64,000 bases of DNA from Deltaproteobacteria bacterium (GCA_020632715.1 JACKFA010000002.1:578122-642121); one strand, 5' to 3'. Numbered from the stretch's first letter, positions 11,488 through 50,556 are shown. The notes: generated from the sequence alone by a model not told the origin. Made by a program: numbers and translations.

Positions 11488-11545
11488 CGGAGGACCTCGG
11501 CGGGTCGCGGGAGGGACGGCGCGGCGCGCGTCACCCTCCCGGTGC

Positions 11546-11569
11546 GAAAAACCCCCGCGCGGGCGGGGG
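11546..11569 (-). terminator. Intrinsic-terminator-like GC hairpin plus T5 run on the minus strand, ~58 nt upstream of the ilvB start. Either a candidate attenuator or the terminator of the upstream OPT gene.
   Basis: The minus strand reads cccccgc-ccgc-gcggggg followed by ttttt; the + strand shows aaaaacccccgcgcgggcgggggt. Stem and U-run are in the correct order for minus-strand transcription. Confidence 0.4.
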
Positions 11570-11805
11570 TCGATGAGTGCTCGAAGGGGTGCTCGTCATC
11601 GACGTCCGCGGCGCATGCGCAGGCGTACGAGGGCGAGGAAGCGCGGGTCGACGTGCCGCGGCAGGCGGGCCGGGGCGAGGGGACGGGTGTCGGGAAACGT
11701 GCGCTCCACGCTGTCAGACTGAGGTTTATGACGCGCTGTGTCAACCTTCACAGCGGCCGCCTCCGCGCCCGAGGCGGGGGCCTCGGGCGGCGGGGCGGGG
11801 GGCGC

Positions 11806-11820
11806 GTGAACGTCGTTCAC
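11806..11820. promoter_or_regulatory. Perfect 15-bp palindrome GTGAACGTCGTTCAC in the ilvB upstream region. Candidate dimeric-regulator operator.
   Basis: Read from the sequence. It lies between the OPT stop (11906) and ilvB, next to the AT-richer stretch ggttgacacagcgcgtcataaacctcagtct (minus sense). Confidence 0.3.
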
Positions 11821-11905
11821 CGTGGGCGAGGCGGCCGCGGCGCGCGCGGCCCGACGCTGTCTCCGAAGCGAGGACTCACGCCCCAAGCGCGCCTCCGTGA
11901 CCGGG

Positions 11906-36400: not shown

Positions 36401-39400
36401 CACCTGGTAGTAGCCGGCGTCGCACGACCCGACCTCGCAGCGCGGCGCCCCGTTCGTCACGGCGCACGTCTCGGTCGCGTTCGGGATCCGCCCGGTGCAG
36501 GAGATCCCGCAGCTCCCGCAGTTGTCGACGTCCGTATAGAGGCCGGCCGCGTTCCGGAACGGCTCGTCGGCCTGCCCGTCGCAGTTGTTGTCCTGGAAGT
36601 CGCACGTCTCGGCGACCGGCGTCGCGACCGGGCACTGCCAGCCGCTCGTCCCCTGGCACGTGTACGTCGCCGAGCACGTCCCGACCCCCGCGACCGCGTT
36701 GTCGCACGTCGCCGGCGAGTGGGTGACCTCCTCGTCGATGCGCCCGTCGCAGTTGTCGTCGAGGCCGTTACAGGTCTCGGTCGCGGGCGTCTTCGCCGTG
36801 CACGTGCTCCAGCCCATCGTCGACTCGCAGGTCTCCGTCCCGAAGCACGTCCCGCTCGTGTTCGTCGTGCTGCACGTCCGCTGCTTGCCCTGGTTCGCCG
36901 GGAGGCAGTCGCACGCGCCGCTCTCTGGCACGCACTGGAAGACCGTCCCCGCCCCGCCGATGTCCTGGCACTCGAAGCCGGCGACGTCACACGTCCCGGG
37001 CGTGAGCCCGTGGAGGTTGCTCGGGCCGCAGTCCTTGCCGCAGAAGCCACCCGTCGCGAGCGGCACGCAAACGTCGCCCGGCGTCGGGCAGTCGTCGTCC
37101 GTCGCGCACGGCAGACACAGGTCGCTCGTCGCCGGCTGGCAGCTGAGCGGCCCCGTCTGGAAGTAGCCGAAGTCGCACTCGCGCACGACGCAGCGCGGCT
37201 GCCCGCTCGACCCGACCGCGCACATCGCGACCGCGTTCGGGATGGCACCCTCGCAGCTGATCCCGCAGCTCCCGCAGTTCTCGTCGTCGACGTACTTGCC
37301 GGCGCCGTTCTTGAACGTCTCGTCGACCTGCCCATCGCAGTTGTTGTCCGCGAAGTCGCAGCTCTCGGCCTCGGGCGTCCCCGGGTCGCACTGCCACCCG
37401 CTCGCGCCGCCGCACGTGTAGCTCGCCGAGCACGAGCCGACCCCGATCACCGCGTTCGAGCACGTCGCCGGGTCGTGCGTGACCCCCTCGTCGATGCGCC
37501 CGTCGCAGTTGTCGTCGACGCCGTTGCACGTCTCGACCGCCGGCACGCGCGCCGTGCAGCCCGACCAGCCCGCCGCCGGGTCGCACGTCTCCGACCCGAA
37601 GCAGCTCCCGCTCGCGTTCTGGTTGATGCAGGTCCGGGTCTTCCCGCCGTCGCCCGGGAGGCACGAGCAGCTGTTCGACGTCGGCACGCACTGCGCCACG
37701 CCGGCGCCGAGGTCCTGGCACGTGAAGCCCGCGTCACACTCGCCCGCGGGGCGCCCGTGCACGTTCGTCGCCGAGCAGTCGCGCCCGCAGTAGTTGCCGC
37801 CGTCCATCGGGAGGCACTTGTCGCCCGGGGTCGGGCAGTTGGCGTCGGTCGCGCACGCGAGGCAGCTCGAGTCCTGCGACGGGAGGCACGTCGACGCGTT
37901 CGCCCGGTAGTACCCCTCGGCGCACGCGGCCACCTCACAGCGGGGTGTGCCATTTCGCACAATGCACTGCGTCATCGCGTTCGGGATGGCGCCGACGCAG
38001 CTGATCCCGCAGCTCCCGCAGTTCTCGTCGTCGACGTACTGCCCGCTCGCGTTCTTGAAGTCCTCGTCGACCTGCCCATCGCAGTCGTTGTCCTTGTTGT
38101 CGCAGACGTCCTCGGCGGGCGTCGCCGCGACGCAGCTCCAGCCGTTCGCCCCCTTGCAGCTGTAGTCGGCCGTGCACGTGCCCCAGGTGTTCGTCACCTC
38201 GCACGTCGGCGGCGAGTGCACGACGCCCTCGTCCGCCTGGCCGTTGCAGTTGTCGTCGACGCCGTTGCACGTCTCGGCCGACGGCTCGAGCGCCGTGCAG
38301 CCCTCCCAGCCGTTGCCGCTCCCGGCGCCGCAGGTCTCGGTGCCGAAGCACGTCCCGAAGTCGTTCTGCTTCCGGCACGTCCGCATGTCGCCGTCGTTCG
38401 GCTCGAGGCACGTGCAGCTCCCGCTGTCGGGGGCGCACTGCCGCGCCCCGCCCGCCACGTCGACGCAGCTGTAGCCGGGGGCGCAGACCCCCTCGGGCAC
38501 GCCGTGCGCGTTGCCGGCGCTGCAGTCGCGCCCGCAGAACTTGCCGCCGTCGAGCGAGAGGCACTTGTCGCCCGGGGTCGGGCAGTTCGCGTCGGTCACG
38601 CACGGCACGCAGGTCGTGTCGGTCGCCGGGAGGCACGTGAGCGGCCCCACCTGGTAGAAGCCCTCCTCGCAGCTCGCGACCTCGCAGCGCGCGCGCGTCC
38701 CGCTCACGACGCAGTGGCTCGTCGCGTTCGGCAGGAGCCCGTCGCACGAGACGCCGCAGGTGCCGCAGTTCTCGTCGTCCACGTAGAGCCCGGCCGCGTT
38801 CTTGAACGCCTCGTCGACCTGGCCATCGCAGTTGTCGTCCTGGAAGTTGCAGAGCTCGGCGACGGGGGTCTGCACCGGGCACTCCCAGCCGCTCGCCCCG
38901 CTGCACACGTACTGCGCGGCGCACGTGCCGCTCGCGTTCGACTCGGTGCAGCTGACCGGGTCGTGCGCGACGCCCTCGTCCGCCTGCCCGTTGCAGTTGT
39001 CGTCGACGCCGTTGCAGGTCTCGGCCGCCGGCGTCCGCGCCGAGCACGCCGACCACCCGGGCGACTGCGCCGGGTCGCACTCGCTCGTGCCGGTGCACGC
39101 GCCGAAGCCGTTCTGGTTCACGCAGGGGCGGAGGCGCCCCTCCATGCCGGGGAGGCACGTGCAGGACTTCGTCTCGGGGATGCAGCGCCCGGCCTCGCAG
39201 GAGAAGCCGTTGCCGCAGTCGCTCGTGTCCGAGCAGCCGCGCGTGCAGAAGCTGCCGCCGTCGAGGCTCGTGCACTGGCCGCCGGGGAGCTCGGCGCACT
39301 GGGCGTTGTCGGAGCACGGCGAGCACGCCACGGCGCCGGTCGTCGGGATGCAGACGCGGTTCGTGTCCGGCGGGACGTAGAAGCCGTCGAGGCAGGAGAG

Positions 39401-41230
39401 GGCGACGCAGACGGGGACGCCGTTATCGACCACGCACTGGGTGCTCGACGAGAAGAGGATGGCCTCGTCGCAGCCGCGCCCGCAGATCCCGCAGTTGTCG
39501 TCGCTGTCGTAGGGGCCCGTCGGGCTCTCGCGGAAGTCCTCGTCCGTGGCCCCGTCGCAGTCGTTGTCGATGACGTCGCACACCTCGGCGGCCGGCGTCT
39601 TCGCGTCGCAGACCCAGCCGTTCGCGCCCGCGCACTGCCACTGCCCCGAGCACGTGCCGAACTCGTTCGTCACCTGGCAGGGCTCGGTCGGCGGCGTGAC
39701 CGCCTCGTCGACGCGCCCGTTGCAGTTGTCGTCGATGCCGTTACAGGTCTCGGGCGACGGCACGTAGGCGCTGCACTGGCTCCAGCCGTTCGCCGGGCCG
39801 CCGCACGTCTGGAGGCCGGCGCACGTGCCGTACTCGTTCGACTCGGTGCAGGGGCGCGACTTGCCCTGGTCGCTCGTGCGCGAGCAGCTGCAGCTGTTGC
39901 TGTACGGCAGGCACTGGTGGCGCCCGTCGCCGAGCTCGGTGCAGGTGTAGCCGTTCGGGCAGCTCCCCTCGTTGTAGCCGTTGAGGTTGTCGGCGCCGCA
40001 GTCCTGGCCGCAGAAGAGGCCGCCGTCGAGCGGCACGCAGGCGTTGCCCGGGACGACGCAGTTCGCGTCCTCGGTGCAGGGGAGGCAGGCCGCCTCGATG
40101 ACCGGGAGGCAGGTCGTGGGGCCGGCGAGGTAGAAGCCGGGGGCGCAGGAGGTCACGACGCAGCGGGCGACGCCGCTCTCGACGCGGCAGCCGCTGACGG
40201 CGTTCGGGAAGAAGCCCTCGCAGCTGTTGCCGCAGACGCCGCAGTCGGTGTCGAGCGTGTAGAGGCCGGTCGCCTGGTCGCGGAAGCCCTCGTCGATGTG
40301 GCCGTCGCAGTTGTTGTCCTCGTAGTCGCAGGACTCGTTCCGCGCCTCCTGACCGACGCAGGTCCACCCCTCGGCGCCGCTGCAGACGCGGTGGCCGGCG
40401 CACACGCCGAACTCGTTCGTCACCTCGCAGGGGGTGTCGTCGACGAGGTTCTCGTCCGTGAGGAGGTTGCAGTTGTCGTCCATGCCGTTACAGATCTCGG
40501 CGGTCGGGACGTGCGCGTCGCACTCGCTCCAGCCGTCCTCACCGAGGCAGGTGCGGAGGCCGAAGCAGGTGCCGGCGTCGTTCTTGGCGCTGCAGGGCTC
40601 CTGGACGCCCTCGTTGCCGACGGTGCAGGCGCAGGTGCCCGTGACCGGCACGCACTGCGAGCTCGACGCGCCCGACGCGCCCTCGGAGGTCACCTGCTCG
40701 CAGGCGTAGCCGCTCGGGCACTCCTCCTGCGAGTTGCACGCCTGGGTGCAGCGCTGGCCGTCCTCGAAGGTGAGGCACATGCCCTGGCCGCACTGCGTGT
40801 CGATGGTGCACGCCTGGCAGAGGCGGCTCGCCTTCGGGACGCACACGAAGGTGACGTCCTGCTGGCCCGAGATCCCGACGCAGCTCCAGCCGTCGGGGCA
40901 GTCCTCCTCGCAGAGCTTGGTGCAGACGGGGCCGAGGCTCGAGTCGACGCACCACCCCGAGAGGCAGTCGGTGTTCTCGAAGCACGGGGCGCCGAACTCG
41001 CCGGTGCCCGCGGTGGTGTCGCCGTCGCTCGTGTCAGCCTGCGTGTCGGGCTGCACGTTGATGTCGATCGGCGTGAACGTGTCCGCGTCGACGGCCGAGT
41101 CGACGGCCTCGCTCGTGTCCTTCGAGACGACGTCCGAGTCGGTCTCGTCCGCCGAGTCGTGGCAGGCCGCGAGCGCGCTCGTGAGCGCGAAGGCGGCCGC
41201 GAGGCACGCAATACGATGGCTGCGGGTCAT
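27494..41230 (-). CDS. Giant (4578-aa) Cys-rich repeat lipoprotein. About 14 tandem ~265-aa modules, each carrying two MopE-like putative metal-binding motifs, then a right-handed beta-helix region and a Gly-rich C-terminal tail.
   Basis: Lipoprotein signal MTRSHRIACLAAAFALTSALAAC. Recurring module: CxCLPGD-G-TRTC...GTCFG-ETC...TPAAETCNGVDDNCNGQADEG...GTCSA-Y-C-GASGWQC...ETCDFADNNCDGQVDE-FKN--G-YVDDENCGSCG-SC...RCEV--C--GYY...CLPCATD--CPTPGD-C-P-DGG-FCG-DC. The C-terminal ~800 aa include a pectate-lyase-like beta-helix (ILVADGLYEETVSL...GFIIDG...) and GGxGG repeats. The + strand 4557-aa ORF is an antisense artefact. Confidence 0.8.
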   Translation of the reverse strand: MTRSHRIACLAAAFALTSALAACHDSADETDSDVVSKDTSEAVDSAVDADTFTPIDINVQPDTQADTSDGDTTAGTGEFGAPCFENTDCLSGWCVDSSLGPVCTKLCEEDCPDGWSCVGISGQQDVTFVCVPKASRLCQACTIDTQCGQGMCLTFEDGQRCTQACNSQEECPSGYACEQVTSEGASGASSSQCVPVTGTCACTVGNEGVQEPCSAKNDAGTCFGLRTCLGEDGWSECDAHVPTAEICNGMDDNCNLLTDENLVDDTPCEVTNEFGVCAGHRVCSGAEGWTCVGQEARNESCDYEDNNCDGHIDEGFRDQATGLYTLDTDCGVCGNSCEGFFPNAVSGCRVESGVARCVVTSCAPGFYLAGPTTCLPVIEAACLPCTEDANCVVPGNACVPLDGGLFCGQDCGADNLNGYNEGSCPNGYTCTELGDGRHQCLPYSNSCSCSRTSDQGKSRPCTESNEYGTCAGLQTCGGPANGWSQCSAYVPSPETCNGIDDNCNGRVDEAVTPPTEPCQVTNEFGTCSGQWQCAGANGWVCDAKTPAAEVCDVIDNDCDGATDEDFRESPTGPYDSDDNCGICGRGCDEAILFSSSTQCVVDNGVPVCVALSCLDGFYVPPDTNRVCIPTTGAVACSPCSDNAQCAELPGGQCTSLDGGSFCTRGCSDTSDCGNGFSCEAGRCIPETKSCTCLPGMEGRLRPCVNQNGFGACTGTSECDPAQSPGWSACSARTPAAETCNGVDDNCNGQADEGVAHDPVSCTESNASGTCAAQYVCSGASGWECPVQTPVAELCNFQDDNCDGQVDEAFKNAAGLYVDDENCGTCGVSCDGLLPNATSHCVVSGTRARCEVASCEEGFYQVGPLTCLPATDTTCVPCVTDANCPTPGDKCLSLDGGKFCGRDCSAGNAHGVPEGVCAPGYSCVDVAGGARQCAPDSGSCTCLEPNDGDMRTCRKQNDFGTCFGTETCGAGSGNGWEGCTALEPSAETCNGVDDNCNGQADEGVVHSPPTCEVTNTWGTCTADYSCKGANGWSCVAATPAEDVCDNKDNDCDGQVDEDFKNASGQYVDDENCGSCGISCVGAIPNAMTQCIVRNGTPRCEVAACAEGYYRANASTCLPSQDSSCLACATDANCPTPGDKCLPMDGGNYCGRDCSATNVHGRPAGECDAGFTCQDLGAGVAQCVPTSNSCSCLPGDGGKTRTCINQNASGSCFGSETCDPAAGWSGCTARVPAVETCNGVDDNCDGRIDEGVTHDPATCSNAVIGVGSCSASYTCGGASGWQCDPGTPEAESCDFADNNCDGQVDETFKNGAGKYVDDENCGSCGISCEGAIPNAVAMCAVGSSGQPRCVVRECDFGYFQTGPLSCQPATSDLCLPCATDDDCPTPGDVCVPLATGGFCGKDCGPSNLHGLTPGTCDVAGFECQDIGGAGTVFQCVPESGACDCLPANQGKQRTCSTTNTSGTCFGTETCESTMGWSTCTAKTPATETCNGLDDNCDGRIDEEVTHSPATCDNAVAGVGTCSATYTCQGTSGWQCPVATPVAETCDFQDNNCDGQADEPFRNAAGLYTDVDNCGSCGISCTGRIPNATETCAVTNGAPRCEVGSCDAGYYQVSALTCLPATDSQCTPCVTDAQCPTPGDRCIPMDGGSFCGRDCSAGNKHGYAAGECPSGYQCSAFDGGMQCIPTTNSCSCLPGDEGRTRTCSNTNTDGTCFGSSTCHEASGWTTCTAKTPAAESCNGADDNCNGAIDEGVTHSPATCDNTVAGVGTCSATYVCGGASGWQCDVATPVAETCDFADNNCNGQIDESFKNAAGKYVDDENCGSCGVSCDGAIPNASAMCEVNASGQPRCVVRECDSGYYKTGPLSCSPATNSLCTSCATDNDCPTPGDVCVPLDGGGYCGKDCGPGNLHGLTPGSCDVAGFVCNDITGGGVYQCVPESGACDCLPANDGKQRTCSVANAQGTCFGTETCDSHSGWGTCTARTPAAESCNGQDDNCNGQIDEAVTHSPATCDNVVAGVGTCSASYVCQGASGWQCPAATPVAESCDFQDNNCNGQVDESFRNAQGLYTDVDNCGSCGVSCSGKIPNATETCAVHNGAPRCEVATCDPGYYQVSPLTCLPAVDSQCTPCVTDANCPTPGDRCIPMDGGNFCGRDCSAGNAHGYAAGQCPTGYTCGAFDGSQQCMPTSGSCSCLPGNAGNTRTCSATNTQGTCFGTATCDPATGWGGCTAKTPAAETCNGADDNCNGQIDESPTQPTTACQATNANGTCSAAWTCGGASGWQCPAAAPAAETCDFADNDCDGSTDEDFKQNGKYVNDQNCGSCGISCAGAIPNATAGCAYNGGNPRCEVMACDSGYFQTGPLSCAASSSNVCRTCTGDGDCPTPGDRCLTVGTQQVCGQDCSAGNLHGVPAGTCQEAGFTCNDFGGGMQQCVPQSGTCDCLPGDNGKTRTCSSSNAQGTCYGAETCDSTQGWVGCSARTPAAETCNGVDDNCNGQADEGVAHTPATCDNTVAGVGTCSAAYTCGGASGWQCSPATPVTETCNGQDDNCDGQVDEAFKNAAGQYVNDQNCGACGISCAGSIANATATCSAQSGTPRCEVATCSAGYYKASALTCLPATDNSCLACATDANCGTPGDKCIALDGANVCARSCGAGNAYGTPAGQCPAGYACETQGSGAQVCVPSSHSCSCLTADNGKTRTCQKANTSGTCFGTETCNPASGWFGCSAKTPAAETCNGQDDNCNGAVDEAVTAPTDPCQATNANGTCSASWTCGGASGWQCPAATPGAETCNFVDDNCNGQVDETFKVNGKYVNDQNCGTCGASCDGVLPNATATCKLNGTTPRCEVLTCDVGYYKASATACLPATVTACSPCSVDADCGNPGDRCLTIGGGQFCGQDCSAGNVHGTAAGTCATSGFTCQAFAGGPNQCVPQSGACDCLAGDDGKTRLCSNANGNGTCYGTQTCNATSGWGTCNAKVPAAETCNGLDDNCNSQVDEGAVQPTQSCANTNGNGTCSASWTCGGASGWQCPAATPGAETCNYLDDNCNGQVDEAFKNASGQYVSDANCGACGISCAGSIANATATCSAASGAPRCEVATCATGYYKASALTCLPATDNTCLACATDANCGTPGDKCIALDGANVCARSCDAGNAYGTPAGQCPSGYSCEAQASGANVCVPTSHSCACRAGDSGKTRTCQATNASGTCFGSETCNPTSGWYGCSAKTPAAETCNGLDDNCNGQADESVAAPTDPCAVTNAYGTCSAGWQCQGAGGWVCPAATPAAETCDFADNDCDGQVDEDFKQSGKYVNDQNCGTCGSSCTGVLPHATATCRLNNGTPRCEVESCDVGYYVAGATSCLPATATACSPCVVDGDCGNPGDRCLTIGSGKFCGQDCSAGNVHGTAAGSCQNAGFVCQAFAGGPNQCVPQSGACDCLAGDAGKTRLCSSTNGNGTCYGNETCNPSVGWTGCNAKVPAAETCNGLDDNCNSSVDEGATAPTTACAVTNANGTCSASWTCGGTGGWQCPAATPAAETCNFKDDNCDGQIDESFKNANGYYVNNANCGTCGVSCAGSIPNATATCVENGGAPRCEVATCAAGYYKAGPLTCLPATSAACQSCASDSNCPTPGDKCLALDGGQYCGIDCSAGNLHGTAAGVCPSGYTCQDVTGGFKQCVPQSASCTCLAGDTGKTRTCLKSNAIGTCYGSETCNPSTGWSSCTALTPATEICDNVDNNCNSAIDDVAGRGQSCSITNGFGSCAGVQDCAGGSSGLTCVGKTPAAEICNYQDDDCDGTTDEGFGNLNQSCSNGVGACQRFGFYVCTANGASTTCNAVAGAASTEICDGVDNDCNGQVDENAAWANKGQPCTMGQGVCQQTGVYQCSANGSATECSKSGGTPAVSNETGLCNNLDDDCDGAIDEDYPTKGQLCSVGVGTCKAFGNYICNAGGNGVSCSATAGTAGTETCDLLDNDCNGVTDNGFVNAQGKYYRDDFCGNCFTDCTTIFAKANGYGTCNATGTPTCGLQCCAPGSTNPRCAGVTNYFYNLNGVPDDGCEFMLDPVAIYVSNTQALAQDTAGCGLGPVGTGTGGGNFPCRTIGYGITRAVAAGRTKVLVADGLYEETVSLVDGVSLLGGYRADTWERNVAATNTTIRGASSIVTHVKTIIAQGITTKTTVLEGFIIDGQSSFAPSGNSYAIWVKDSNNKLEIRSNVIFGGSGGVGTNGSNGTLGSDGGNGQIGERSILTNTYNNCTSAADVPGNVPNCWNSDTNTKDATSCGGGGSNTCGGTSVAGGGGASAKCPNTLESGTDYDQQPSGGGGSTAGTGNGTAGGGGEGGHDRKSTNCGTFGTGGYSATGLPGANGGRGTDRSGGAGAAANNGQVTSFEWKGYAGSAGTAGTHGGGGGGGGAGGGADVTSDCSSGGDNTDDSLGGSGGGGGAGGCGGTAGTGGQPGGGSFGIFITNTASTAIGSLPVITGNTVTRGTGGDGGAGGSGGKGGLGGNGGDGGLTYGRWTYAMGFGGRGGQGGDGGHGGGGGGGQGGASFGIYLHNYSGTPTFQNFNTFLSGGFGGRGGFGGTSVGQAGQAGADGSASNRNW
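29740..40660. repeat. Coding tandem-repeat array, period ~0.8 kb with ~14 copies, inside the giant lipoprotein gene.
   Basis: The protein-level periodicity of the Cys-rich modules maps to these DNA coordinates (approximate). Copies are diverged (roughly 60-80% identical by eye), which suggests an old expansion. Confidence 0.6.
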
Positions 41231-41350
41231 CAGGATCCCCGAGTCTGCGAGAGAGGTCTACGCGCGAACGTGAGGGCGTCCGCTCGTCGGAATGTCGATC
41301 GTGAGGGCTGAAGGAAAACTTGAGGCTTTCTTGTAACGATCCTTCAGGTC

Positions 41351-41656
41351 ATGCTCCCGGGCATGGCCGCCATCGAGGACGATCCCATCGGCTGTCGCGT
41401 GCTCCTCCACGTGTCGCCGCGCGCCAGCAGGACGCGCGTCGTCGGGCTCCACGACGGGCGCGTGAAGCTCCAGGTCGCCGCCCCCCCGGTCGACGGCGAG
41501 GCGAACGCCGAGGTCGAGCGCTTCCTCGCGCGGGCGCTCGACGTGCCGCGCGACCGCGTGGCGATCGTCGCGGGCGCGACGGGCAAGCGGAAGGCGGTGC
41601 GCGTCGAGGGCGTGACGGCGGCGGCGGCCGCGGCGGCGCTCGGCGTCGAGAGCTGA
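41351..41656 (+). CDS. DUF167 (YggU/UPF0235) family protein
   Basis: 101 aa with ...RVLLHVSPRASRTRVVGLHDGRVKLQVAAPPVDGEANAEVERFLARALDVPRDRVAIVAGATGKRKAVRVEG, which matches the YggU family pattern. Confidence 0.7.
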   Translation: MLPGMAAIEDDPIGCRVLLHVSPRASRTRVVGLHDGRVKLQVAAPPVDGEANAEVERFLARALDVPRDRVAIVAGATGKRKAVRVEGVTAAAAAAALGVES

Positions 41657-41745
41657 GGCGCGCGCGGCGTCGTCGCGCGGGCGGCGGGCGACGATTCCGT
41701 TCGGAGCGACGCCGTGGTACCACAGCCCCGCTCCGGAGGTGCCCC

Positions 41746-43779
41746 ATGCGAATCGCGTTCACGCACAACCTGCAGAAGAAGGGCGGCGAGGAGGAGGCCG
41801 AGTTCGACTCGCCCGAGACCGTCGTCGCCATCACGCGGGCGCTCGAGTCGCTCGGTCACGACGTCGTCCCGGTCGACGTCGACATGTCGGTGACGCGCCT
41901 CATCTCGCTCCTCGAGGGCGCGCGCCCCGACCTCATCCTGAACACCGCCGAGGGGTGGCGCGGCGCCTTCCGCGAGGCCCTCTTCCCCGCGCTCTTCGAG
42001 ACGCTGGGGCTCCCGTTCGTCGGCCCGGACGCGCACGCCTGCGCGCTCGCGCTCGACAAGCACGCCACGAAGGCGCTCGTCGCGGAGCTCGGCGTCCCGA
42101 TGGCGCCGTCGGTGTTCGTGCAGCGGCACGTCCCGGCGGACCTCTCGAAGCTCGAGCTGCCGGTCATCGTGAAGCCGAACTTCGAGGGCAGCTCGAAGGG
42201 CATCGAGGACAGCTCGGTCGTCACGGACCGGGCCGACCTCGAGCCGCGCGTGGCCGAGGCGCTCGCCCGCTACCCCGACGGCGTGCTCGTCGAGGAGCTC
42301 ATCCCCGGCGTCGACATCGTCGTGCCCTTCATCGCCGGGCTCGGCCCCGACGGCGGCGCGCTCACGCCCGCGACCTACCGCTTCTCGGAGGAGGCGCGCG
42401 CGACGTCGCGCCACGGCCTCTACGGCTACGAGCTCAAGAACCACTCGGCGGCCGCGGTGGACGTCGTCCCCGCCGCGCTCGACGCGGCGCAGGCCCGCGA
42501 CGCGCGCGCCTGGACGCGGGCCATCGCGGCGCAGCTCGGCCTGCACGACATGGCGCGCATCGACTTCCGCCTCACGCCCGAGGGGCAGCTCCTCTTCATC
42601 GAGGCGGAGCCGCTCCCGAGCCTCGAGCTCGGCGCGAGCCCGCACGTGTCGGCGGCGCTCGCGGGCGCGACGACCACGGCCGCGGTGCTCGAGGCCATCC
42701 TGAAGGCGTCGTGCGCGCGGCAGGGGCTCGCGTACAAGGGGAGCGGGAAGGCGGCGCGGAGCCGCTCGTACAAGGTGGGGCTCGTCTACAACCTGAAGCG
42801 GGTGAAGCCGAAGAAGGACGGCGAGAACGACGCCGAGGCCGAGTTCGACGCGCCCGAGACCATCGACGCCATCGCGGGCGCGATCGAGGGCCTCGGGCAC
42901 ACGGTGGTGCGGCTCGAGGCGGACCGGACGCTCTTGAACCGCATCGGCCACGCCGGGGTCGACGTGGTGTTCAACATCGCCGAGGGGGTGCGCGGGCGCG
43001 GGCGCGAGGCCCTGGTGCCGGCGATCCTCGAGCTGCTCGACATCCCGTACACCGGGAGCGACCCGGCGACGCTCGCGCTGACGCTCGACAAGGCGCTCGC
43101 GAAGCGGCTCGTGCGCGAGGCGGGGGTGCGGACGCCCGACTTCGTCGTGATGACGGCGGTGAAGCAGAAGCTGCCGCCGAACATGACGTTCCCGCTGGTC
43201 GTGAAGCCGGTCGCCGAGGGGAGCTCGAAGGGGGTCCTGAAGACGAGCGTCGTGCGCGACGACGCGGAGCTGCGCGCGCTCGTGACGGAGATCCTCGCGC
43301 GTTACGATCAGGGCGCGCTCGTCGAGGAGTTCCTGCCCGGGCGCGAGTTCACGGTGGGGATCCTCGGCGGCACGGGGCAGAAGCCGCGCGTGCTGCCGCC
43401 GATGGAGATCGTGTTCAACGCGTCGGCCGGGGAGAACCCGGTGTACACCTTCGAGCACAAGCAGGACTTCACGCCGCAGGTGACCTACCAGGTGCCGGCG
43501 CACACGACGCGGGAGCTCGCCGACGACCTCGCGCGAGCGGCGCGGCTCGCGTGGGACGCGCTCGGGTGCCGCGACGTGTCGCGCATGGATCTGCGGCTCG
43601 ACCACGAGGGGCGCGTGTCGTTCATCGAGTGCAACCCCCTGCCGGGGCTGACGCCCGACTGGTCGGACCTGTGCCTCATCGCGAAGGGGGCGGGGCTCGG
43701 CTATCAGGAGCTCATCGCGGAGATCCTCGCGCCGGCGGTGCGGCGCCTCGAGCGGCGGCTCGGGCGCAAGGGGCGCTGA
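41746..43779 (+). CDS. Tandem (duplicated) D-alanine--D-alanine ligase-like ATP-grasp fusion protein
   Basis: 677 aa, two ~330-aa Ddl-like halves. Half 1: MRIAFTHNLQKK...LGLPFVGPD...VIVKPNFEGSSKGI. Half 2: YKVGLVYNLKRVK...LDIPYTGSD...LVVKPVAEGSSKGV. The ATG at 41746 is preceded by GGAGGTG. Confidence 0.75.
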   Translation: MRIAFTHNLQKKGGEEEAEFDSPETVVAITRALESLGHDVVPVDVDMSVTRLISLLEGARPDLILNTAEGWRGAFREALFPALFETLGLPFVGPDAHACALALDKHATKALVAELGVPMAPSVFVQRHVPADLSKLELPVIVKPNFEGSSKGIEDSSVVTDRADLEPRVAEALARYPDGVLVEELIPGVDIVVPFIAGLGPDGGALTPATYRFSEEARATSRHGLYGYELKNHSAAAVDVVPAALDAAQARDARAWTRAIAAQLGLHDMARIDFRLTPEGQLLFIEAEPLPSLELGASPHVSAALAGATTTAAVLEAILKASCARQGLAYKGSGKAARSRSYKVGLVYNLKRVKPKKDGENDAEAEFDAPETIDAIAGAIEGLGHTVVRLEADRTLLNRIGHAGVDVVFNIAEGVRGRGREALVPAILELLDIPYTGSDPATLALTLDKALAKRLVREAGVRTPDFVVMTAVKQKLPPNMTFPLVVKPVAEGSSKGVLKTSVVRDDAELRALVTEILARYDQGALVEEFLPGREFTVGILGGTGQKPRVLPPMEIVFNASAGENPVYTFEHKQDFTPQVTYQVPAHTTRELADDLARAARLAWDALGCRDVSRMDLRLDHEGRVSFIECNPLPGLTPDWSDLCLIAKGAGLGYQELIAEILAPAVRRLERRLGRKGR

Positions 43780-43781
43780 GC

Positions 43782-44927
43782 GTGGTGCCGGGGGAGCCGC
43801 GGCGGCGGCTGCGGGAGCTCGGGATCGCCATCGGGCGGTTCGAGCCGGGGCCGTTCAACGCCATCACGGACGTCGAGGGGGTGCGGGTCGGGCACACGAC
43901 GCTCCACACCGGGTCGGGGCCGCTCGTGGTGGGCGAGGGGCCCGTGCGCACCGGGGTCACCGCGATCCTCCCGAACGAGGGGACGGTGTTCAACGAGCGG
44001 CTCATCGCGGGGACGTTCGTCTTGAACGGCGCGGGCGAGCTCGCGGGGCTGACGCAGCTCAACGAGTGGGGGCTCCTCGAGACGCCGATCCTGCTCACGA
44101 ACACGCTCTCGGTGGGGGCGGCGTCGCAGGGGATGATCGAGCACCTGCTCGAGCGGTTCCCGAGCATCGGGGTCGAGCACGACGTGATCATCCCGGTGGT
44201 CGGGGAGTGCGACGACTCGTTCCTGAACGACATCGGCGGCGGGCACGTCACGGCGGAGCACGCGCGGCGGGCGCTCGAGTCGGCGACGGGGGGGCCGGTC
44301 GAGGAGGGCTGCGTCGGCGGCGGGACGGGGATGGTGTGCTTCGATCTGAAGGGCGGGATCGGCACGTCGTCGCGGGTCCTGCCCGAGGAGCTCGGCGGCT
44401 TCAGGCTCGGCGTGCTGGTGATGACGAACTTCGGGCGCATCGCGGACCTGCGCGTCGACGGGGTGCCGGTGGGCGAGGAGCTCGCGTCGTACTTCGCGCG
44501 CGAGGAGAAGCGGCCGAACCTCTACGGGAGCATCATCGCGGTGCTGGCGACGGACGCGCCGCTGTCGACGTCGCAGCTGAACCGGGTGTGCAAGCGGGTG
44601 AGCCTCGGGCTCGGGCGGATGGGGTCCTACGCGGCGCACGGCTCGGGGGAGATCATCGTCGGGTTCTCGACGGCGAACACGGTGCCGCGCGGGAAGGCGC
44701 GGCGCATCCATCGGCTGCACATGCTGGCCGACTGGGCCATCGACCCGCTCTACCAGGCGGCCATCGAGTGCGCCGAGGAGGCCGTGCTGAACGCGCTCTG
44801 CATGGCGGTGCCGACCGACGGGGCCGACGGGCGCCATGTGAGGGCGCTCCCGCTCGCGGCGGTGACGGAGCTCTGGCAGCGGCACCGGGGTCGGCTCGGT
44901 CGACCCATCAAGTCGCTCCGCTCGTAG
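43782..44927 (+). CDS. DmpA/BapA-family (peptidase S58) aminopeptidase
   Basis: 381 aa from GTG 43782, 2 nt after the ligase stop, with AAGGGG upstream. ITDVEGVRVGHTTL and GTGMVCFDLKGGIGTSS match the S58 N-terminal-nucleophile hydrolase family. Confidence 0.75.
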   Translation: MVPGEPRRRLRELGIAIGRFEPGPFNAITDVEGVRVGHTTLHTGSGPLVVGEGPVRTGVTAILPNEGTVFNERLIAGTFVLNGAGELAGLTQLNEWGLLETPILLTNTLSVGAASQGMIEHLLERFPSIGVEHDVIIPVVGECDDSFLNDIGGGHVTAEHARRALESATGGPVEEGCVGGGTGMVCFDLKGGIGTSSRVLPEELGGFRLGVLVMTNFGRIADLRVDGVPVGEELASYFAREEKRPNLYGSIIAVLATDAPLSTSQLNRVCKRVSLGLGRMGSYAAHGSGEIIVGFSTANTVPRGKARRIHRLHMLADWAIDPLYQAAIECAEEAVLNALCMAVPTDGADGRHVRALPLAAVTELWQRHRGRLGRPIKSLRS

Positions 44928-45065
44928 AGAGCGCGATCGTCGCGCGGTCGCCGTTCGCAACGGATGGAATTCTATCGTCTCGGTAGGTTTCTTCGCCGAG
45001 CGGACGGCGTCGGACGCCGCGGAGGCGCTCAGGATGACGTGGCGAGCCATGTCGGGATGAATTGG

Positions 45066-45089
45066 CACGACCATTATATAATGGTCGTG
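45066..45089. promoter_or_regulatory. Perfect 24-bp palindrome CACGACCATTATATAATGGTCGTG, AT-rich core, ~145 bp upstream of the CarH-like gene. Candidate operator/promoter.
   Basis: Read from the sequence. TATATAAT is a striking AT island in a ~70% GC genome. Confidence 0.45.
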
Positions 45090-45233
45090 ATCCCGCGAGC
45101 CTTTGCGTGACCTCCAAACAAAGGCGGACAGCAGAGGGTGGTTCATGACAAAATCGGTCATCTTTCGGCAACGGATGTCGCAGCGTCCAGCGCGGAAGGG
45201 AGAGAGCTTGCAGCCACGATCCCGGGAGGAGAC

Positions 45234-46169
45234 ATGATTCGGAGTGAGGAGCCGCAGGCGCTCTATCCGATGCGTGTCGTGACGCGGCTCACGGGGTTGC
45301 ATCCGGACACGATCCGCGCGTGGGAGCGTCGCTACGACGCGGTGATCCCGCAGCGCACGAACGGGAACACGCGGATGTTCTCGGCGGGGGACGTGCGGCG
45401 GCTGTCGATCCTGCGGGAGCTCGTCGACCATGGGCACGCCATCGGCCACATCGCGTCGCTGAGCGACGAGGCGTTGGCGGTGCTGGTGGAGGAGCACCGG
45501 GCGGAGCGGGCGGCGGCGAGCGCGCGGGCGCTGGGTCAGGTCGTGACGGTGCCGGCGATCGTGAAGCCGTACCTCGGGGCCATCGCGCGGTTCGACGTGA
45601 GGCGGGCGCACGACCTGTTGTCGCGGGCGGCGGCGGTGTTGCCGCCGCGGGAGTTCGTGTTCGACGTGGCGCTGCCGATCCTGAGGACGGTGGGCGAGCG
45701 TTGGAGCAACGAGGAGCTCGGGGTGGCGCAGGAGCACCTGGTGACGGCGCACATCCAGGGGTTGCTCGAGACGTTCGGGCGCTTCCACCCGCACGACGCG
45801 GGGGCGCCGCGCATCGTGGCGACGACGCCGGGCGGTCAGCGGCACGCGATGGGGGTGCTCATCGGGAGCATGCTGGCGGCGGCGCGGGGTCTGGACGTGG
45901 TGTACCTGGGGCCGGACCTGCCGGCGGCGGACATCATCTGGGCGGTGGACGCGAGTGAGGCGCAGGTGCTGCTCCTGGGCCTGATGATGGATCTCGACGA
46001 GCGCGAGACCGAGCAGCTGACAGACCTCCTCGACCGCCTCCCGAGCCGCTGTGAGCCCTGGCTGGGCGTCCCGCCGTACCACACGTTCAGCCACCGTCGA
46101 GCCCGCCGGATGACGGACTTCGAGGCCCTCGAGGTCGCGTTGGTCGAGCTCGCCGCCCGGGCGCGTTAG
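45234..46169 (+). CDS. MerR-family transcriptional regulator with C-terminal cobalamin (B12)-binding domain (CarH/LitR-like)
   Basis: MerR HTH region MRVVTRLTGLHPDTIRAWERRYDAVIPQRTNGNTRMFSAGDVRRLSILREL. B12-binding module with EHLVTAH and GGQRHAMGV (approximating the DxHxxG His-on motif), followed by a Rossmann-like LDVVYLGPDLP... The ATG at 45234 is preceded by GGGAGGAG. Confidence 0.7.
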   Translation: MIRSEEPQALYPMRVVTRLTGLHPDTIRAWERRYDAVIPQRTNGNTRMFSAGDVRRLSILRELVDHGHAIGHIASLSDEALAVLVEEHRAERAAASARALGQVVTVPAIVKPYLGAIARFDVRRAHDLLSRAAAVLPPREFVFDVALPILRTVGERWSNEELGVAQEHLVTAHIQGLLETFGRFHPHDAGAPRIVATTPGGQRHAMGVLIGSMLAAARGLDVVYLGPDLPAADIIWAVDASEAQVLLLGLMMDLDERETEQLTDLLDRLPSRCEPWLGVPPYHTFSHRRARRMTDFEALEVALVELAARAR

Positions 46170-46177
46170 CGGGAGCG

Positions 46178-46224
46178 CCCGCCTCCGCCTCCGCTTCCGC
46201 TTCCGCTTCCGCCTCCGCCTCCGC
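46178..46224. repeat. Hexanucleotide SSR (GCCTCC/GCTTCC)n, ~8 units
   Basis: gcctccgcctccgcttccgcttccgcttccgcctccgcctccgc, immediately after the stop of the CarH-like gene. Inverted partner at 47003-47054. Confidence 0.8.
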
Positions 46225-46593
46225 GCGGTCGGAGTTCGTGGGTGTGATGGGCTGACGTGCCCGCGTGCGGCGGTTCCGGTCAGGGATGTTGACGCGGCTG
46301 GGGCTTGGTCGCGTTCGAGGTTCGCGGCCGCGCCCACCGGCGCCGTCTCGCCACGCCGCTTCGCGTCGTCGGCGAGACGCCGCCTACGGGGAGGGCCGTT
46401 TCGTTGATGCCTGATTCTGGCAGCGTGCTCGGGCCCCGCAAGGCCGAGCCGTCCTCGCCGTCCTCGCGGCTTCGCCGCTCCGGGCGGCTCCGGGCGGTGG
46501 CCGCTTCGCGGCCAGCCTTGCAGGGCCCTGCGCGCGCTGCCCTTGGGGGTGCATCAACGGAAACCGCCGGGCACACCGGCAAAGGAAATCGCC

Positions 46594-46911
46594 ATGTTGC
46601 GCATCTACTCGGACGCTCTCCAGGTCACCAAGGCCGCCGTCGCCCTCTCCCGCCAACTCGCCGCCAGCGACGCGACGCTCGCCGATCAGCTCCGCCGCGC
46701 CGCCATCTCCATCCCCCTCAACATCGCCGAGGGCTCCGGCGTCATCGGCGGCAACCAGCGCCTCCGCTACAGCACCGCGCTCGGCTCCGCGTGCGAGGTC
46801 CGCTCCTGCGTCGACGTGGCCGCCACCTGCGGCTACTGCGGCAGCCTCGATCCCGTCGCGGCGGACCGCCTCGACAAGGTCATCGCCACCCTCTTCAAGC
46901 TCACCCGCTGA
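46594..46911 (+). CDS. Four-helix-bundle protein (TIGR02436 family; the type often found in 23S rRNA intervening sequences)
   Basis: 105 aa with MLRIYSDALQVTKAAVALSRQLAASDATLADQLRRAAISIPLNIAEGSGVIGGNQRLRYSTALGSACEV..., which matches the family signature (R-AA-SI--NIAEG ... A-GS--E). AAAGGAAA SD upstream. Confidence 0.7.
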   Translation: MLRIYSDALQVTKAAVALSRQLAASDATLADQLRRAAISIPLNIAEGSGVIGGNQRLRYSTALGSACEVRSCVDVAATCGYCGSLDPVAADRLDKVIATLFKLTR

Positions 46912-47055: not shown

Positions 47056-47445
47056 CTACAGCTCGTACTCGATGACCATCAACTCCTCAGGAGGCAAATC
47101 CAGCATATCGGCGACCTCCTCGAGGAAGGCGTCCTCCTCGTCGACGACGACGCCGTCGGCGTCGAGCACGCGCAGCACCGCGCACAAGAGCGCCCGCCGC
47201 TGGGTCAGCCCCTGGAGGCCGAGCGCGTCGACCGCCGCCTCCACGTCGATGAGGCCCGCGTCGCGGTCCGCGATGTGCTTCGCGACCTGCGCCGGGAGCT
47301 CCTCCCGCCCCATCGCCTCGCGCACCGCAGCCTCGATGGTCCGCGCCTCGACCTCCTCGTACACGTGGTCCGAGTGGGCCGCCGCCAACAGGATGTCAGC
47401 CAGCGCGCACGCCTGCTCCGTGGTCTCGATGACCATCCGCCCCAT
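47056..47445 (-). CDS. TerB-domain (tellurite-resistance TerB-like) small protein
   Basis: Internal start MGRMVIETTEQACALADILLAAAHSDHVYEEVE...LLCAVLRVLDADGVVVDEEDAFLEEVADMLDLPPEEL (129 aa). GGAGG lies 6 nt upstream of ATG 47445. Confidence 0.5.
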   Translation of the reverse strand: MGRMVIETTEQACALADILLAAAHSDHVYEEVEARTIEAAVREAMGREELPAQVAKHIADRDAGLIDVEAAVDALGLQGLTQRRALLCAVLRVLDADGVVVDEEDAFLEEVADMLDLPPEELMVIEYEL

Positions 47446-47721
47446 CCGAACCTCCGCTCTCGATGGAGAGCCTACCCGACCCGCACCCGGCCTTCTACCG
47501 CCGCGTCGCCGCGTCGCCGGCCCCAGCGGCCACCTCGTGTGCGTTGCATCAAAACGGGCCCTCAGCTCGGCCAACTCGCCGCCTTCCGTGAGCCCGTCAG
47601 GCCATCTCGCAACCGCGAAGCGGCCGCGCCAGGGAGCCTTCTTCATACCCCGAACTACGGGACCCGCGCCCCATGGACGTAACTCCACGGTCCCGCGCCG
47701 GTAACCGCGCCCAGCGGGCGC

Positions 47722-48636
47722 TCACGCCGACGTCGACGCGCGCACCCCCGCCGCGAACGCCCGCAGCTCGCCCATCGAGTCGAGGCGGTGCACCCGCGCT
47801 GGCAGCGGCCCGAGCGGTGGCACGCCGCGACCCCCGACGACCACGTCCCCCCGCCACGGCGCGACCGCCGCGGCGAGGCTCGCGAGCTCCGCCTCGAGGG
47901 CGCGCGCGCTCGCCGGGGGCACCGAGCACGTCAGCCACAGCACGCGCGGACGGTAGCGCGCCGCGGCGTGGGTGAGCGCGGCGATCGGCGTGCTCGCGCC
48001 GAGGTTCCGGTCGACGAAGCCCGCCTCCGCGAGCACGAGGCTCGCCATGAGGGAGGGCAGCAGGTACGGGTCATCCGGGGACGCGCCACCGAGCGCGACC
48101 GGCGACCCGGCCGGCGCGGGCTCGAGGAGCGCCCGCAGCTCGGCGAACGCGTGGACGCACATGTCGGTGGCGCGGTGCTCGATGAAGATGCCGGCGTCGT
48201 CGTGGTGCCAGAGCTCGCCCACGCGCGTCATCACCTCGCGGACAGGGCCGTCGCAGAGGGCCGCGAGCGTCCAGCCCCCGACGTAGAGCGCGAGCAGAAT
48301 CGCCCGCGCCGCCTCCGGCTCGTCCTCGTGCACCGCGCGCCACAGCGCCTCCGTCGCCGCGCCCGCCGCGACCGCGTCCTCGGGCGCGACGGACACCTCG
48401 GCCGGCAGCGCCGCGCCGACCAGGGCGGCCGGGAGCCGCACCGCCGCGCCCGTCCGACGCACGAAGCGCACCGCCTCGGCGAGCGCGATGCGGCGGTGGC
48501 CGCCGGCCGTCTTCACCGCGGCGAGCGCCCCGTCGTCGACCCAGCGCTTGACGGACGACTCGGAGACCCCCAGCGCCCGGCCGAGCTCACGCGGGGAGAG
48601 GACCGGCCCGGGCCCGCTCTGGGAGTTCAGGGTCAT
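47722..48636 (-). CDS. Excisionase-family HTH DNA-binding protein with C-terminal B12-binding-like domain lacking the canonical His (CarA-like analogue)
   Basis: N-terminal LSPRELGRALGVSESSVKRWVDDGALAAVKTAGGHRRIA is an excisionase/MerR-type HTH. The C-terminus follows the B12-binding Rossmann pattern (VALGGASPDDPYLLPSLMASLVLAEAGFVDRNLG...VVVGG) but has DDPY where DxHxxG would sit. Confidence 0.55.
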   Translation of the reverse strand: MTLNSQSGPGPVLSPRELGRALGVSESSVKRWVDDGALAAVKTAGGHRRIALAEAVRFVRRTGAAVRLPAALVGAALPAEVSVAPEDAVAAGAATEALWRAVHEDEPEAARAILLALYVGGWTLAALCDGPVREVMTRVGELWHHDDAGIFIEHRATDMCVHAFAELRALLEPAPAGSPVALGGASPDDPYLLPSLMASLVLAEAGFVDRNLGASTPIAALTHAAARYRPRVLWLTCSVPPASARALEAELASLAAAVAPWRGDVVVGGRGVPPLGPLPARVHRLDSMGELRAFAAGVRASTSA

Positions 48637-48843: not shown

Positions 48844-49503
48844 ATGACCTTCGCGCTTGCTCCCTCGGTGACGTGTCCCCCCGATGTCCGCCGACTCCCT
48901 GGTCGCGCGCCCCAGGCAGACGCCGGGCCGCCGGAGGTCGATCTGCCGCGCATCGAGGCCGCCGTGCGCGAGATCCTGGCCGCCGTGGGCGAGGACCCCG
49001 ACCGCGAGGGGCTGCTCGACACCCCGGCGCGCGTGGCGCGCGCCTACCGCGACCTCTTCGCCGGGCTCCGCGAGGACCCGGGCGTCCACCTCGCGCGCCA
49101 GTTCGAGCACGAGACGGGCGGCGACGACGCCGTGGTGCTCCGCAACATCGAGTTCTCCTCCACATGCGAGCATCACCTCCTCCCCTTCCTCGGCCGCGCG
49201 CACGTCGCCTACCTGCCCGCGGACGGCCGCGTGACCGGGCTCAGCAAGCTCGCCCGCACGGTGGACGTCTTCGCGCGCCGACCGCAGCTCCAGGAGCGCC
49301 TGACGTCGCAGATCGCGGACGCCCTCATGGGGCACCTCGGCGCCCGCGGCGCCGCGGTGGTCGTGGAAGGCGAGCACCTCTGCATGCGCTCCCGGGGCGC
49401 CAGGAAGCGCGACGCCATGATGGTCACCACGGCGCTCCGCGGCGTCTACCGCGACGACAAGGCGCTCCGGAAGGAGATCCTCGGCCTCCTCCGAGGCAAG
49501 TAG
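48844..49503 (+). CDS. folE: GTP cyclohydrolase I
   Basis: 219 aa with ...[23 protein letters not shown]...[23 protein letters not shown]... These are classic FolE motifs. Confidence 0.9.
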
Positions 49504-49572: not shown

Positions 49573-50556
49573 CTACGTCTCCCAGGGCGCCCCGTAGCGC
49601 GCGAGCCGCTCGCAGAGCTCCCACAGCGCCTGCCGCTCGTCCGCCGTCGCCCGCGTCCACGGCAGCACGTGCGTCCGCCGCGGCTCCCGGTCGAAGAAGA
49701 GCTGCCCTGTCACCCCGCGCACCTCGTCGCTCGCCGCGAGCCACACGATCGTGTCCGCGCCGCCCTCGCCGTCCCGGAGGAGCGGCTTCATCACCCGCCG
49801 GAACCGCGGCAGCGCCTCGGCCACCCCCGGCGTGTCCACCCACCCGGGGTGCATCGCGTTCGACGTGATCCCCGTCGCCGCGAGGTGCTCCCCCCACTGC
49901 TCCGACAGGACCACCTGCGCCCGCTTCGTCTCCGCGTACGCCTTCACCCCGTCGAACGCCCGCCGCTCCCACATCGGATCCCCGACCTCGAGCCGCCGCG
50001 CGTACATCCCGCCCGACGTCACGTTCACGATCCGCCCGCGCCCGGCCTCGAGCTGCCGCCGCAGCGCCCGCGTCAGCGCGAACCCGCCGAGCACGTTCGT
50101 CGCGAACGTGAGCTCGACCCCGTCCACCGAGAGCCGCCGCGCCTTCTCGAGCACCCCCGCGTTGTGCACGAGCGCGTGCACCGCCGGGAACCCGACCGCC
50201 ACCTGCCGCGCGAACTGCCGCACCGAGTCGAGCGAGCTCACGTCGAGCTCGAGCACCTCGACCTCCGCCCGCGACACGGCCCGCTGCACCTCCGCGCGCG
50301 CCGCCTCCCCGCGCCCCATCTTGTCGCGGCACCCGAGCACCACCGTCGCCCCGCACCGCGCGAGCCCCTTCGCCGCCGCGAGGCCTATCCCGCGCGTCGC
50401 CCCCGTCACGATCGCGACCTTCCCGCGCATGTCCCCGGGCGGCCCGTCCCCGAACCGCCGCCGCCGCACGAGCCAGCCCGGCTTCCCGTAGGCGAGCGCC
50501 ACCGTCCCCTCGAGCACCGCGTCCACCGCGCGCCGCCGCAGATCCCGCAGCTTCAC
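49573..50556 (-). CDS. Short-chain dehydrogenase/reductase (SDR), retinol-dehydrogenase-like subfamily
   Basis: GKVAIVTGATRGIGLAAAKGLARCGATVVLGCRD..., NAG and a YxxxK-type Y/K pair. The GTG start at 50556 overlaps the kinase TGA stop (GTGA). An alternative ATG (MRGKV) lies at 50430. Confidence 0.75.
   Translation of the reverse strand: MKLRDLRRRAVDAVLEGTVALAYGKPGWLVRRRRFGDGPPGDMRGKVAIVTGATRGIGLAAAKGLARCGATVVLGCRDKMGRGEAARAEVQRAVSRAEVEVLELDVSSLDSVRQFARQVAVGFPAVHALVHNAGVLEKARRLSVDGVELTFATNVLGGFALTRALRRQLEAGRGRIVNVTSGGMYARRLEVGDPMWERRAFDGVKAYAETKRAQVVLSEQWGEHLAATGITSNAMHPGWVDTPGVAEALPRFRRVMKPLLRDGEGGADTIVWLAASDEVRGVTGQLFFDREPRRTHVLPWTRATADERQALWELCERLARYGAPWET

Follow-up and report, generated by a model that had tools for sequence, protein, structure and literature searches.

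Why would a bacterium keep, two nucleotides apart, a gene for a double ATP-grasp ligase resembling D-alanine–D-alanine ligase (Ddl) and a gene for an S58 aminopeptidase of the DmpA/BapA type? The question is raised by positions 41351 to 44927 of a 64,000-nucleotide (nt) stretch, here called the window (GC content about 72%), from a genome labelled Deltaproteobacteria bacterium (GCA_020632715.1 JACKFA010000002.1:578122-642121). The explanation favoured here, to which a probability of about 0.5 is given as a whole, is that the two genes specify a two-step cytoplasmic peptide ligase together with a peptidase that turns its product over. Within it, the pairing of a non-Ddl peptide ligase with a cognate aminopeptidase is by our reckoning somewhat probable, while the naming of β-lysine as the donor is tentative. 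The features on which the argument rests are as follows.

41351-41656, + strand: DUF167/YggU-family gene, 101 amino acids (aa); Pfam PF02594 at E=1e-23, TIGR00251
41746-43779, + strand: tandem "AEFD-type" Ddl-like ATP-grasp amidoligase, 677 aa; Pfam Dala_Dala_lig_C (PF07478) matched twice
41746-42750, + strand: half 1 of the ligase (aa 1-335), a motif-defined module
42763-43776, + strand: half 2 of the ligase (aa 340-677), a motif-defined module
43782-44927, + strand: S58 (P1, DmpA/BapA-type) N-terminal nucleophile (Ntn) aminopeptidase, 381 aa; Pfam Peptidase_S58 at E=5.5e-117
44971-44987, + strand: terminator-like hairpin followed by a T-rich tail, from a consensus scan, 44 nt past the S58 stop

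Open reading frames (ORFs) and Pfam matches agree with a preliminary description of this DNA in placing the S58 gene 2 nt downstream of the ligase, whose TGA ends at 43779 and is followed by a GTG start at 43782; a GGAGG stands 5 nt upstream of the ligase ATG. The ligase, which is 100% identical to P0001 (a protein of a metagenome-assembled genome (MAG) also labelled "Deltaproteobacteria bacterium"), does consist of two complete ATP-grasp modules, as that description had read from the signature VKPxxEGSSKG, found at aa 142-152 and 486-496. The DUF167 gene, first of the local + strand gene run, had been counted in the same operon; tblastn found DUF167 at 0/85 of the other ligase loci, and because of this absence it is not regarded as a member of the module. 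The hairpin is likely the end of the transcription unit, on weak evidence from a scan that gave 3 sites against 1.3 expected. No sigma-70-like promoter appeared in the consensus scan, an Rfam scan of 41000-46600 returned no riboswitch or leader match, and membership in a defence system was rejected, PADLOC models matching none of the three proteins. Since neither the ligase nor the S58 sequence carries a hydrophobic, signal-like N-terminal stretch, both are probably cytoplasmic.

Fold, motifs and active sites of the two enzymes

The two ligase halves share 40% identity (E=8e-56), and each is about 30-33% identical to solved Ddl enzymes, the top solved match of both being P. aeruginosa DdlA (3.5e-17 for half 1, 3.6e-33 for half 2). 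An AlphaFold model built from 49 homologues reached a predicted local distance difference test score (pLDDT) of 89.6, with disorder limited to the linker at aa 333-338, and a Foldseek search of the PDB ranked Ddl structures first (P. aeruginosa DdlA/DdlB, TMt up to 0.86) and found no tandem Ddl structure. In the comparison that had been proposed for the ligase, NCBIfam Van models give it 111-178 bits where their cut-offs are 495-775 (VanA 129 against 775), and the L-amino-acid ligase BL00235 (3VOT) matches at E=4e-4 against 1e-33 for Ddl. An L-amino-acid ligase of the BacD/YwfE or BL00235 type was rejected as closest kin, Ddl being far closer in sequence, as was a VanA-type resistance ligase, for which both the profile scores and any recurrent Van-related neighbour are wanting.

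The likeness to Ddl does not extend to the substrate sites. Both halves of 12 family members were mapped onto E. coli DdlB (sequence checked against 2DLN), and the ATP-, Mg- and catalytic-site equivalents of K97, K144, S150, E180, Y210, K215, R255, D257 and E270 are kept in both halves. The N272 equivalent is kept in half 2; in half 1 of the window it is Glu288, a position held by Asn in 60/62 S58-linked orthologues and by Glu in the window and P0002. Across these 62 orthologues the catalytic set of half 2 is invariant (62/62) and that of half 1 nearly so. In the same mapping, both halves replace His63 by Glu and Glu68 by Arg, while Tyr216 gives way to Asn/Gln/His in half 1 and Gln/Leu in half 2 (N/Q/H/T and Q/L/F, respectively, over the orthologues). 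Gly276 becomes Ser in half 1, and the Ser281/Leu282 loop reads Ala-Gly/Ser in half 1 and Ser-Asp, within WSD, in half 2, so that Ser281 is kept in the latter and Leu282 is replaced by Asp or Gly. The D-Ala-1 site of Ddl (Glu15-Ser150-Tyr216 with His63) is therefore not matched, nor is the D-Ala-2 site (the Ser281/Leu282 loop) in either half. The preliminary description had singled out Glu15, Ser150 and Tyr216 for checking in each half: Ser150 is retained, Tyr216 is lost, and the alignment of Glu15 is ambiguous, falling in the AEFD motif. Its broader contention, that this is something other than a canonical Ddl, is upheld by the replacement of His63, Glu68 and Tyr216 in both halves.

The motifs that define the two halves, and the two codons peculiar to the window lineage, lie at the following positions.

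41794-41820, + strand: half 1, EAEFDSPET
41941-41976, + strand: half 1, NTAEGWRGAFRE
41965-41967, + strand: half 1, codon of aa 74, Ala in place of a motif Arg
42169-42201, + strand: half 1, VKPNFEGSSKG
42553-42570, + strand: half 1, ARIDFR
42595-42633, + strand: half 1, FIEAEPLPSLELG
42607-42609, + strand: half 1, codon of aa 288, Glu in place of the Mg-ligand Asn
42835-42861, + strand: half 2, EAEFDAPET
42973-43008, + strand: half 2, NIAEGVRGRGRE
43201-43233, + strand: half 2, VKPVAEGSSKG
43579-43596, + strand: half 2, SRMDLR
43621-43668, + strand: half 2, FIECNPLPGLTPDWSD

Three motifs, (E/D)xEAEFDxPxT, FN[TI]AEGxxGRxRE and EGSSKG, are common to both halves and absent from Ddl, whose GGxSxE N-motif is replaced by AEFD; conserved Arg and Glu residues foreign to Ddl occur in the two halves as well. 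The C-terminal loops differ from one another, half 1 having ALPSLEPGAG where half 2 has PLPGLTPxWSD. In Ddl, the first substrate, the carboxyl donor, is held by residues of the N-domain and the second, the amine, by the C-terminal loop; common N-domain motifs and unlike C-loops would therefore imply, as we infer from the sequences, one donor type and two different acceptors. That the conserved acidic N-domain residues (Glu19, Asp21, Glu69 and their half-2 equivalents) suit a diamino donor is speculation. On these grounds the ligase is, as far as sequence can place it, a Ddl-derived but non-Ddl member of a clade named "AEFD-type" in this analysis.

The peptidase spans positions 1-306 of the 307 of the S58 profile PF03576 (391 bits) and matches, among solved structures, P. 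horikoshii PH0078 (2DRH, 5e-102), BapA (3N2W, 4e-67) and DmpA (1B65, 1e-65). The equivalents of BapA Ser250, Glu133, Ser288 and Glu290 align and are conserved in 49 S58 orthologues, and the enzyme, which shares about 55% identity with archaeal PH0078, belongs to an orthologous group of its own. Its predicted active-site elements are these.

44202-44219, + strand: GECDDS, with Glu at the BapA Glu133 position
44529-44531, + strand: codon of Ser250, in the predicted autoprocessing site Gly249/Ser250 (YG|S250IIAV)
44640-44654, + strand: GSGEI, the BapA Ser288/Glu290 positions

With DmpA (O. anthropi), BapA (Sphingosinicella), BapF (P. aeruginosa) and PH0078 the window enzyme thus shares a full-length family match, the Gly-Ser site and the nucleophile; it differs from them in being genomically tied to an ATP-grasp ligase.

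Conservation of the pair and the aminomutase link

That ligase and peptidase work together is suggested by the persistence of their adjacency. Neighbourhoods were sampled at 85 related ligase loci, and the S58 count was taken over the 77 with at least 1.3 kb of downstream sequence: an S58 gene lies directly downstream on the same strand in 58/77, and divergently upstream in 3 loci, including Enhygromyxa. The modal spacing of the same-strand pairs is -4 nt, where stop and start overlap as ATGA, and most pairs stay within -8 to +13 nt. The pairing on which the preliminary description had staked its reading is thus conserved and translationally coupled. The more alike two loci are in their ligases, the more alike they tend to be in S58 (correlation of pairwise identities, r=0.82), which fits co-inheritance, and species phylogeny alone could yield the same value. 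No other conserved neighbour emerged from all-vs-all clustering of flanking ORFs or from a Pfam census of 128 upstream ORFs, and no mur, fts or van genes lie near the ligase among the loci examined. No canonical ddl was present in the fetched DNA, a result made uninformative by a coverage of about 18 kb per genome.

Two local arrangements deserve separate record. In a subgroup lacking S58 (L018, L029, L030, L043, L044, L076; about 10200-13200 in each locus), a family-3 solute-binding protein and a polar-amino-acid ATP-binding cassette (ABC) transporter follow the ligase in place of S58, and the half 1 motif is altered to EEDAAFD. In one Bdellovibrionales lineage (L001-L003), and confined to it, a D-2-hydroxyacid dehydrogenase, a lactate permease and an M74 murein endopeptidase precede the ligase (L001, 4446-7926), a gene set that recalls VanH logic.

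The tandem ligase itself is widespread, with 2977 homologues at E<=1e-10, typically of about 680 aa, and at least 592 matching stretches in species-representative genomes. It occurs in Myxococcota (Myxococcus, Hyalangium, Anaeromyxobacter, Enhygromyxa, Polyangia, Nannocystaceae), in Bdellovibrionota (Bdellovibrio, Bacteriovorax, Halobacteriovorax, Oligoflexia), in Bradymonadales and in a few MAGs under other labels.

Relatives with a single ligase domain extend the pattern. A phmmer search with half 2 against 1.84 billion cluster representatives retrieved 1215 clusters at E<=1e-30, among them single-domain proteins of 330-360 aa, 40-56% identical to half 2. For the three of these that were looked up (P0390, P0478 and P0487, at L089, L090 and L091), S58 directly follows in 3/3, overlapping the ligase in two, and the S58 proteins are 56-59% identical to that of the window. 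Because single ligases also precede S58, the core unit appears to be a half-2-type ligase with S58, to which the tandem form adds a module. Half 2 has all four clade motifs (AEFD, FN[IV]AEGxxGRxRE, EGSSKG and the C-loop) and half 1 the first three; the C-loop, PLPGLxPx[WYF]SD, is common to half 2, the S58-linked singles and 8/11 of the aminomutase-fused domains examined.

In P0168, P0182, P0198, P0243 and more than 35 further proteins, a ligase domain 43-51% identical to half 2 is fused to the Radical_SAM and LAM_C domains of a lysine 2,3-aminomutase (LAM). The fused aminomutase matches C. subterminale lysine 2,3-aminomutase KamA (2A5H) at 1e-113 and retains Asp293 and Asp330, which we take to bind the lysine epsilon-ammonium group and to be replaced, both of them, in glutamate 2,3-aminomutase. 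In a rough neighbour-joining tree of the clade the LAM fusions are scattered, and half 2 nests among singles and LAM fusions. A KamA-family gene also adjoins the tandem ligase itself in L058, L073 and L077; in L058 a LAM gene comes first, the tandem ligase follows after 3 nt, and S58 is third. Since fusion or adjacency usually joins consecutive steps, these associations tie the AEFD-type clade to β-lysine. The fusion-bearing operons include the following.

L086, 7001-11321: KamA::Ddl-like fusion, then two more Ddl-like ligases
L092, 6001-9914 (Nitrospirota MAG): KamA::Ddl-like fusion, then a "type C" ligase and an AblB-like GNAT
L094, 6001-9754 (Omnitrophota MAG): KamA::Ddl-like fusion, then a "type C" ligase and an AblB-like GNAT
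L093: KamA::ligase fusion operon with an ornithine/diaminopimelate decarboxylase
L087, 2341-5196: Ddl-like::KamA fusion adjoining a Peptidase_S51 gene
L088, 7001-9835: 944-aa S51::ligase::KamA triple fusion (P0279)

Judged from gene content, L086, L092 and L094 look like an uncharacterised β-lysine peptide pathway conserved across phyla, and the S51 pairing of L087 and L088 is, on the same footing, a second, independent pairing of ligase and peptidase in the AEFD-type clade. Like the window ligase, the fusions (P0168, P0272, P0295) belong to this clade, have its N-domain motifs and mostly its C-loop, and their operons hold two or three ligase modules and in some cases a peptidase; unlike it, they have an aminomutase fused or adjacent, an S51 peptidase, GNAT or decarboxylase as partner in place of S58, and a second ligase that is usually "type C". 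Other combinations were seen as well: P0155, P0159 and P0163 (about 660-700 aa) join an AEFD-type N-terminal half to a "type C" half, and of the stand-alone ligases near AEFD ligases, L057 5685-6815 groups with type C and L091 6972-7997 is ambiguous. The pairing of two ligase modules is, from these architectures, a recurrent theme.

Explanations weighed

In the favoured explanation, the two translationally coupled, cytoplasmic genes would form one functional unit, in which the ligase would make two successive or parallel ATP-dependent amide bonds to yield a small non-ribosomal peptide, from which the S58 enzyme would cleave the N-terminal residue so as to turn over, recycle or edit the product. 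The donor would be a cationic or β-amino acid, with β-lysine the leading candidate. If the carboxylate of β-lysine is activated, the product would therefore be an N-terminal β-aminoacyl amide, the bond type that BapA and DmpA cleave, and the resulting N-terminal β-aminoacyl peptide would be the type of substrate these enzymes take. A further step, by which the module makes and hydrolyses a natural β-peptide, with β-lysine (3,6-diaminohexanoate) or a similar residue coupled in two steps and S58 acting as a dedicated β-aminopeptidase, is possible but doubtful. The β-aminoacyl product proposed in the preliminary description thus gains indirect support from the LAM fusions and neighbours in the ligase clade, and the identity of the substrate stays conditional; the substrates, the action of S58 on the ligase product and the physiological role are all inferred.

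By analogy with AblAB and CphA/CphB, the product might serve as a compatible solute (osmolyte), a nitrogen store or a signal. CphA/CphB and AblA/AblB offer the precedent of an ATP-dependent amide ligase beside a product hydrolase, as an analogy in which enzyme families and chemistry differ. The AblAB pathway to the osmolyte N-epsilon-acetyl-β-lysine uses β-lysine (Pfluger et al. 2003, as cited in PMC2412884). The unit as a whole appears, from its composition, to belong to the known theme of "ATP-grasp amidoligase + peptidase" as an uncharacterised form. The literature yielded no account of a tandem Ddl + S58 pair or of an aminomutase + Ddl-like ligase, with mention in the Iyer/Aravind 2009 amidoligase survey or a 2019 β-aminopeptidase review remaining possible; PMC2412884 and a negamycin preprint were rejected as prior descriptions, their matches being coincidental.

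Several observations weigh against this explanation. A ligase and a hydrolase for one bond in one operon looks futile unless regulated, and about 16 loci with enough flanking sequence have no S58. The aminomutase connection is thin around the tandem form, LAM lying near it in only 3/85 loci and no LAM match occurring within the 64-kb window; among generic KamA loci from metagenomes, 1/50 has such a ligase, which means that the association runs from ligase clade to aminomutase and not the reverse. The window lineage (the window and P0002, 88% identical) carries N288E and R74A in half 1, and the first module may therefore be altered or weaker in activity, to judge from these residues. The AlphaFold model has a predicted template modelling score (pTM) of 0.53, so that the packing and mutual orientation of the halves are uncertain. 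The D-Ala-D-Ala ligase model of NCBIfam, PRK01372, gives the two halves a summed score of 298 bits, above its cut-off of 243.

The last profile score leads to the main rival, a fused, pseudo-dimeric ligase making D-Ala-D-Ala or D-Ala-D-X for peptidoglycan, with S58 controlling dipeptide pools in a logic like that of VanA/VanX. Its case draws further on the closest solved structures and sequences, all of them Ddl or Van ligases, on the retained equivalents of Ser150, Tyr210, Lys215 and Arg255 (with Ser281 in half 2), and on DmpA, which is a D-Ala amidase/esterase. DdlA/DdlB (EC 6.3.2.4) and VanA/B/C share with the window ligase the three-domain ATP-grasp fold and the ATP, Mg and catalytic residues, the N272 position of window half 1 excepted. 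They differ from it in that the window ligase has two modules per chain, an S58 partner and no cell-wall gene context. The replacement of the His63, Glu68, Tyr216 and Leu282 equivalents in both halves, the AEFD motif in place of GGxSxE, Van-specific scores far under their cut-offs, the failure to find mur, fts or van genes nearby, and nearest kin fused to lysine 2,3-aminomutase and not to cell-wall genes together make this rival improbable.

A second rival has the ligase tag a protein or another larger acceptor, by RimK-like tailing or by lysine acylation like the β-lysylation of EF-P, and S58 trim the modification. An ATP-grasp ligase with a peptidase partner is a known peptide-tag theme; a module without transporter or regulator, set in variable contexts, would befit a housekeeping modifier, and the conserved non-Ddl Arg and Glu of both halves could be read the same way. 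No conserved candidate target gene adjoins the module, however, the fold is nearest to small-molecule Ddl enzymes, and, to our knowledge, short peptides and amides are the substrates of those S58 enzymes that have been characterised, which leaves tagging quite unlikely.

No better placed is the idea that S58 acts upstream of the ligase, freeing an amino acid from imported peptides or amides to supply it, or serves as a transferase that hands the N-terminal residue of the ligase product to another acceptor through its acyl-enzyme intermediate. BapA and DmpA do use activated donors for aminolysis and for building peptides (PMC9235088), and the amino-acid ABC importer of the S58-less subgroup hints at an alternative substrate supply; yet on the same strand S58 always comes second, translationally coupled to the ligase, and S58-containing loci have no conserved importer, so that this too is a slim prospect. 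Mere synteny of co-inherited genes without functional link, which could account for the identity correlation by species phylogeny, is very improbable given adjacency that persists across phyla while other neighbours change, overlapping stop and start codons, and a pairing that recurs with single-domain ligases and with a divergent S58 in Enhygromyxa.

Genomic surroundings and significance

The window holds further genes around the module. Upstream, on the - strand at 27494-41230, lies a gene whose cysteine-rich repeat protein, 4578 aa long, contains numerous Cu-binding_MopE-type motifs (CNGxDDNCNGxxDE), as is typical of Myxococcota; a 4557-aa ORF on the opposite strand (27638-41311) is the high-GC shadow of this gene. 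Downstream are two genes for CarH-like regulators (MerR/HTH and B12-binding domains) at 45138-46169 (+) and 47722-48636 (-), enclosing a four-helix-bundle "23S rRNA IVP" gene (46543-46911) and a TerB-like gene (47056-47688, -), followed by a GTP cyclohydrolase I gene (48844-49503, +) and one for a short-chain dehydrogenase whose N-terminus is extended by a long Arg/Gly-rich stretch (49573-51129, -). The CarH-like regulators are not conserved beside the ligase in other loci, and the downstream one, found in 0/85 of them, was rejected as a partner.

Databases name such proteins "D-alanine--D-alanine ligase"; substrate-site changes and gene context argue that no fewer than about 1200 sequence clusters are misnamed in this way. 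The near-constant presence of the ligase–S58 pair among the predatory former delta-proteobacteria makes it probable that the pair serves core metabolism. The title of a review cited in PMC13344977 describes the β-aminopeptidase family as being without known natural substrate. If the aminomutase link reflects substrate use, natural β-lysine-containing peptides would have been identified, and with them a first physiological substrate for β-aminopeptidases, enzymes used in biocatalysis. A widespread β-lysyl-peptide metabolism, independent of ribosomes and of nonribosomal peptide synthetases, would then extend across Myxococcota and Bdellovibrionota; Nitrospirota, Omnitrophota and other groups would hold its aminomutase-fused cousins. 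Either way, the tandem enzyme would represent a compact, ATP-driven, two-site ligase for peptide synthesis.

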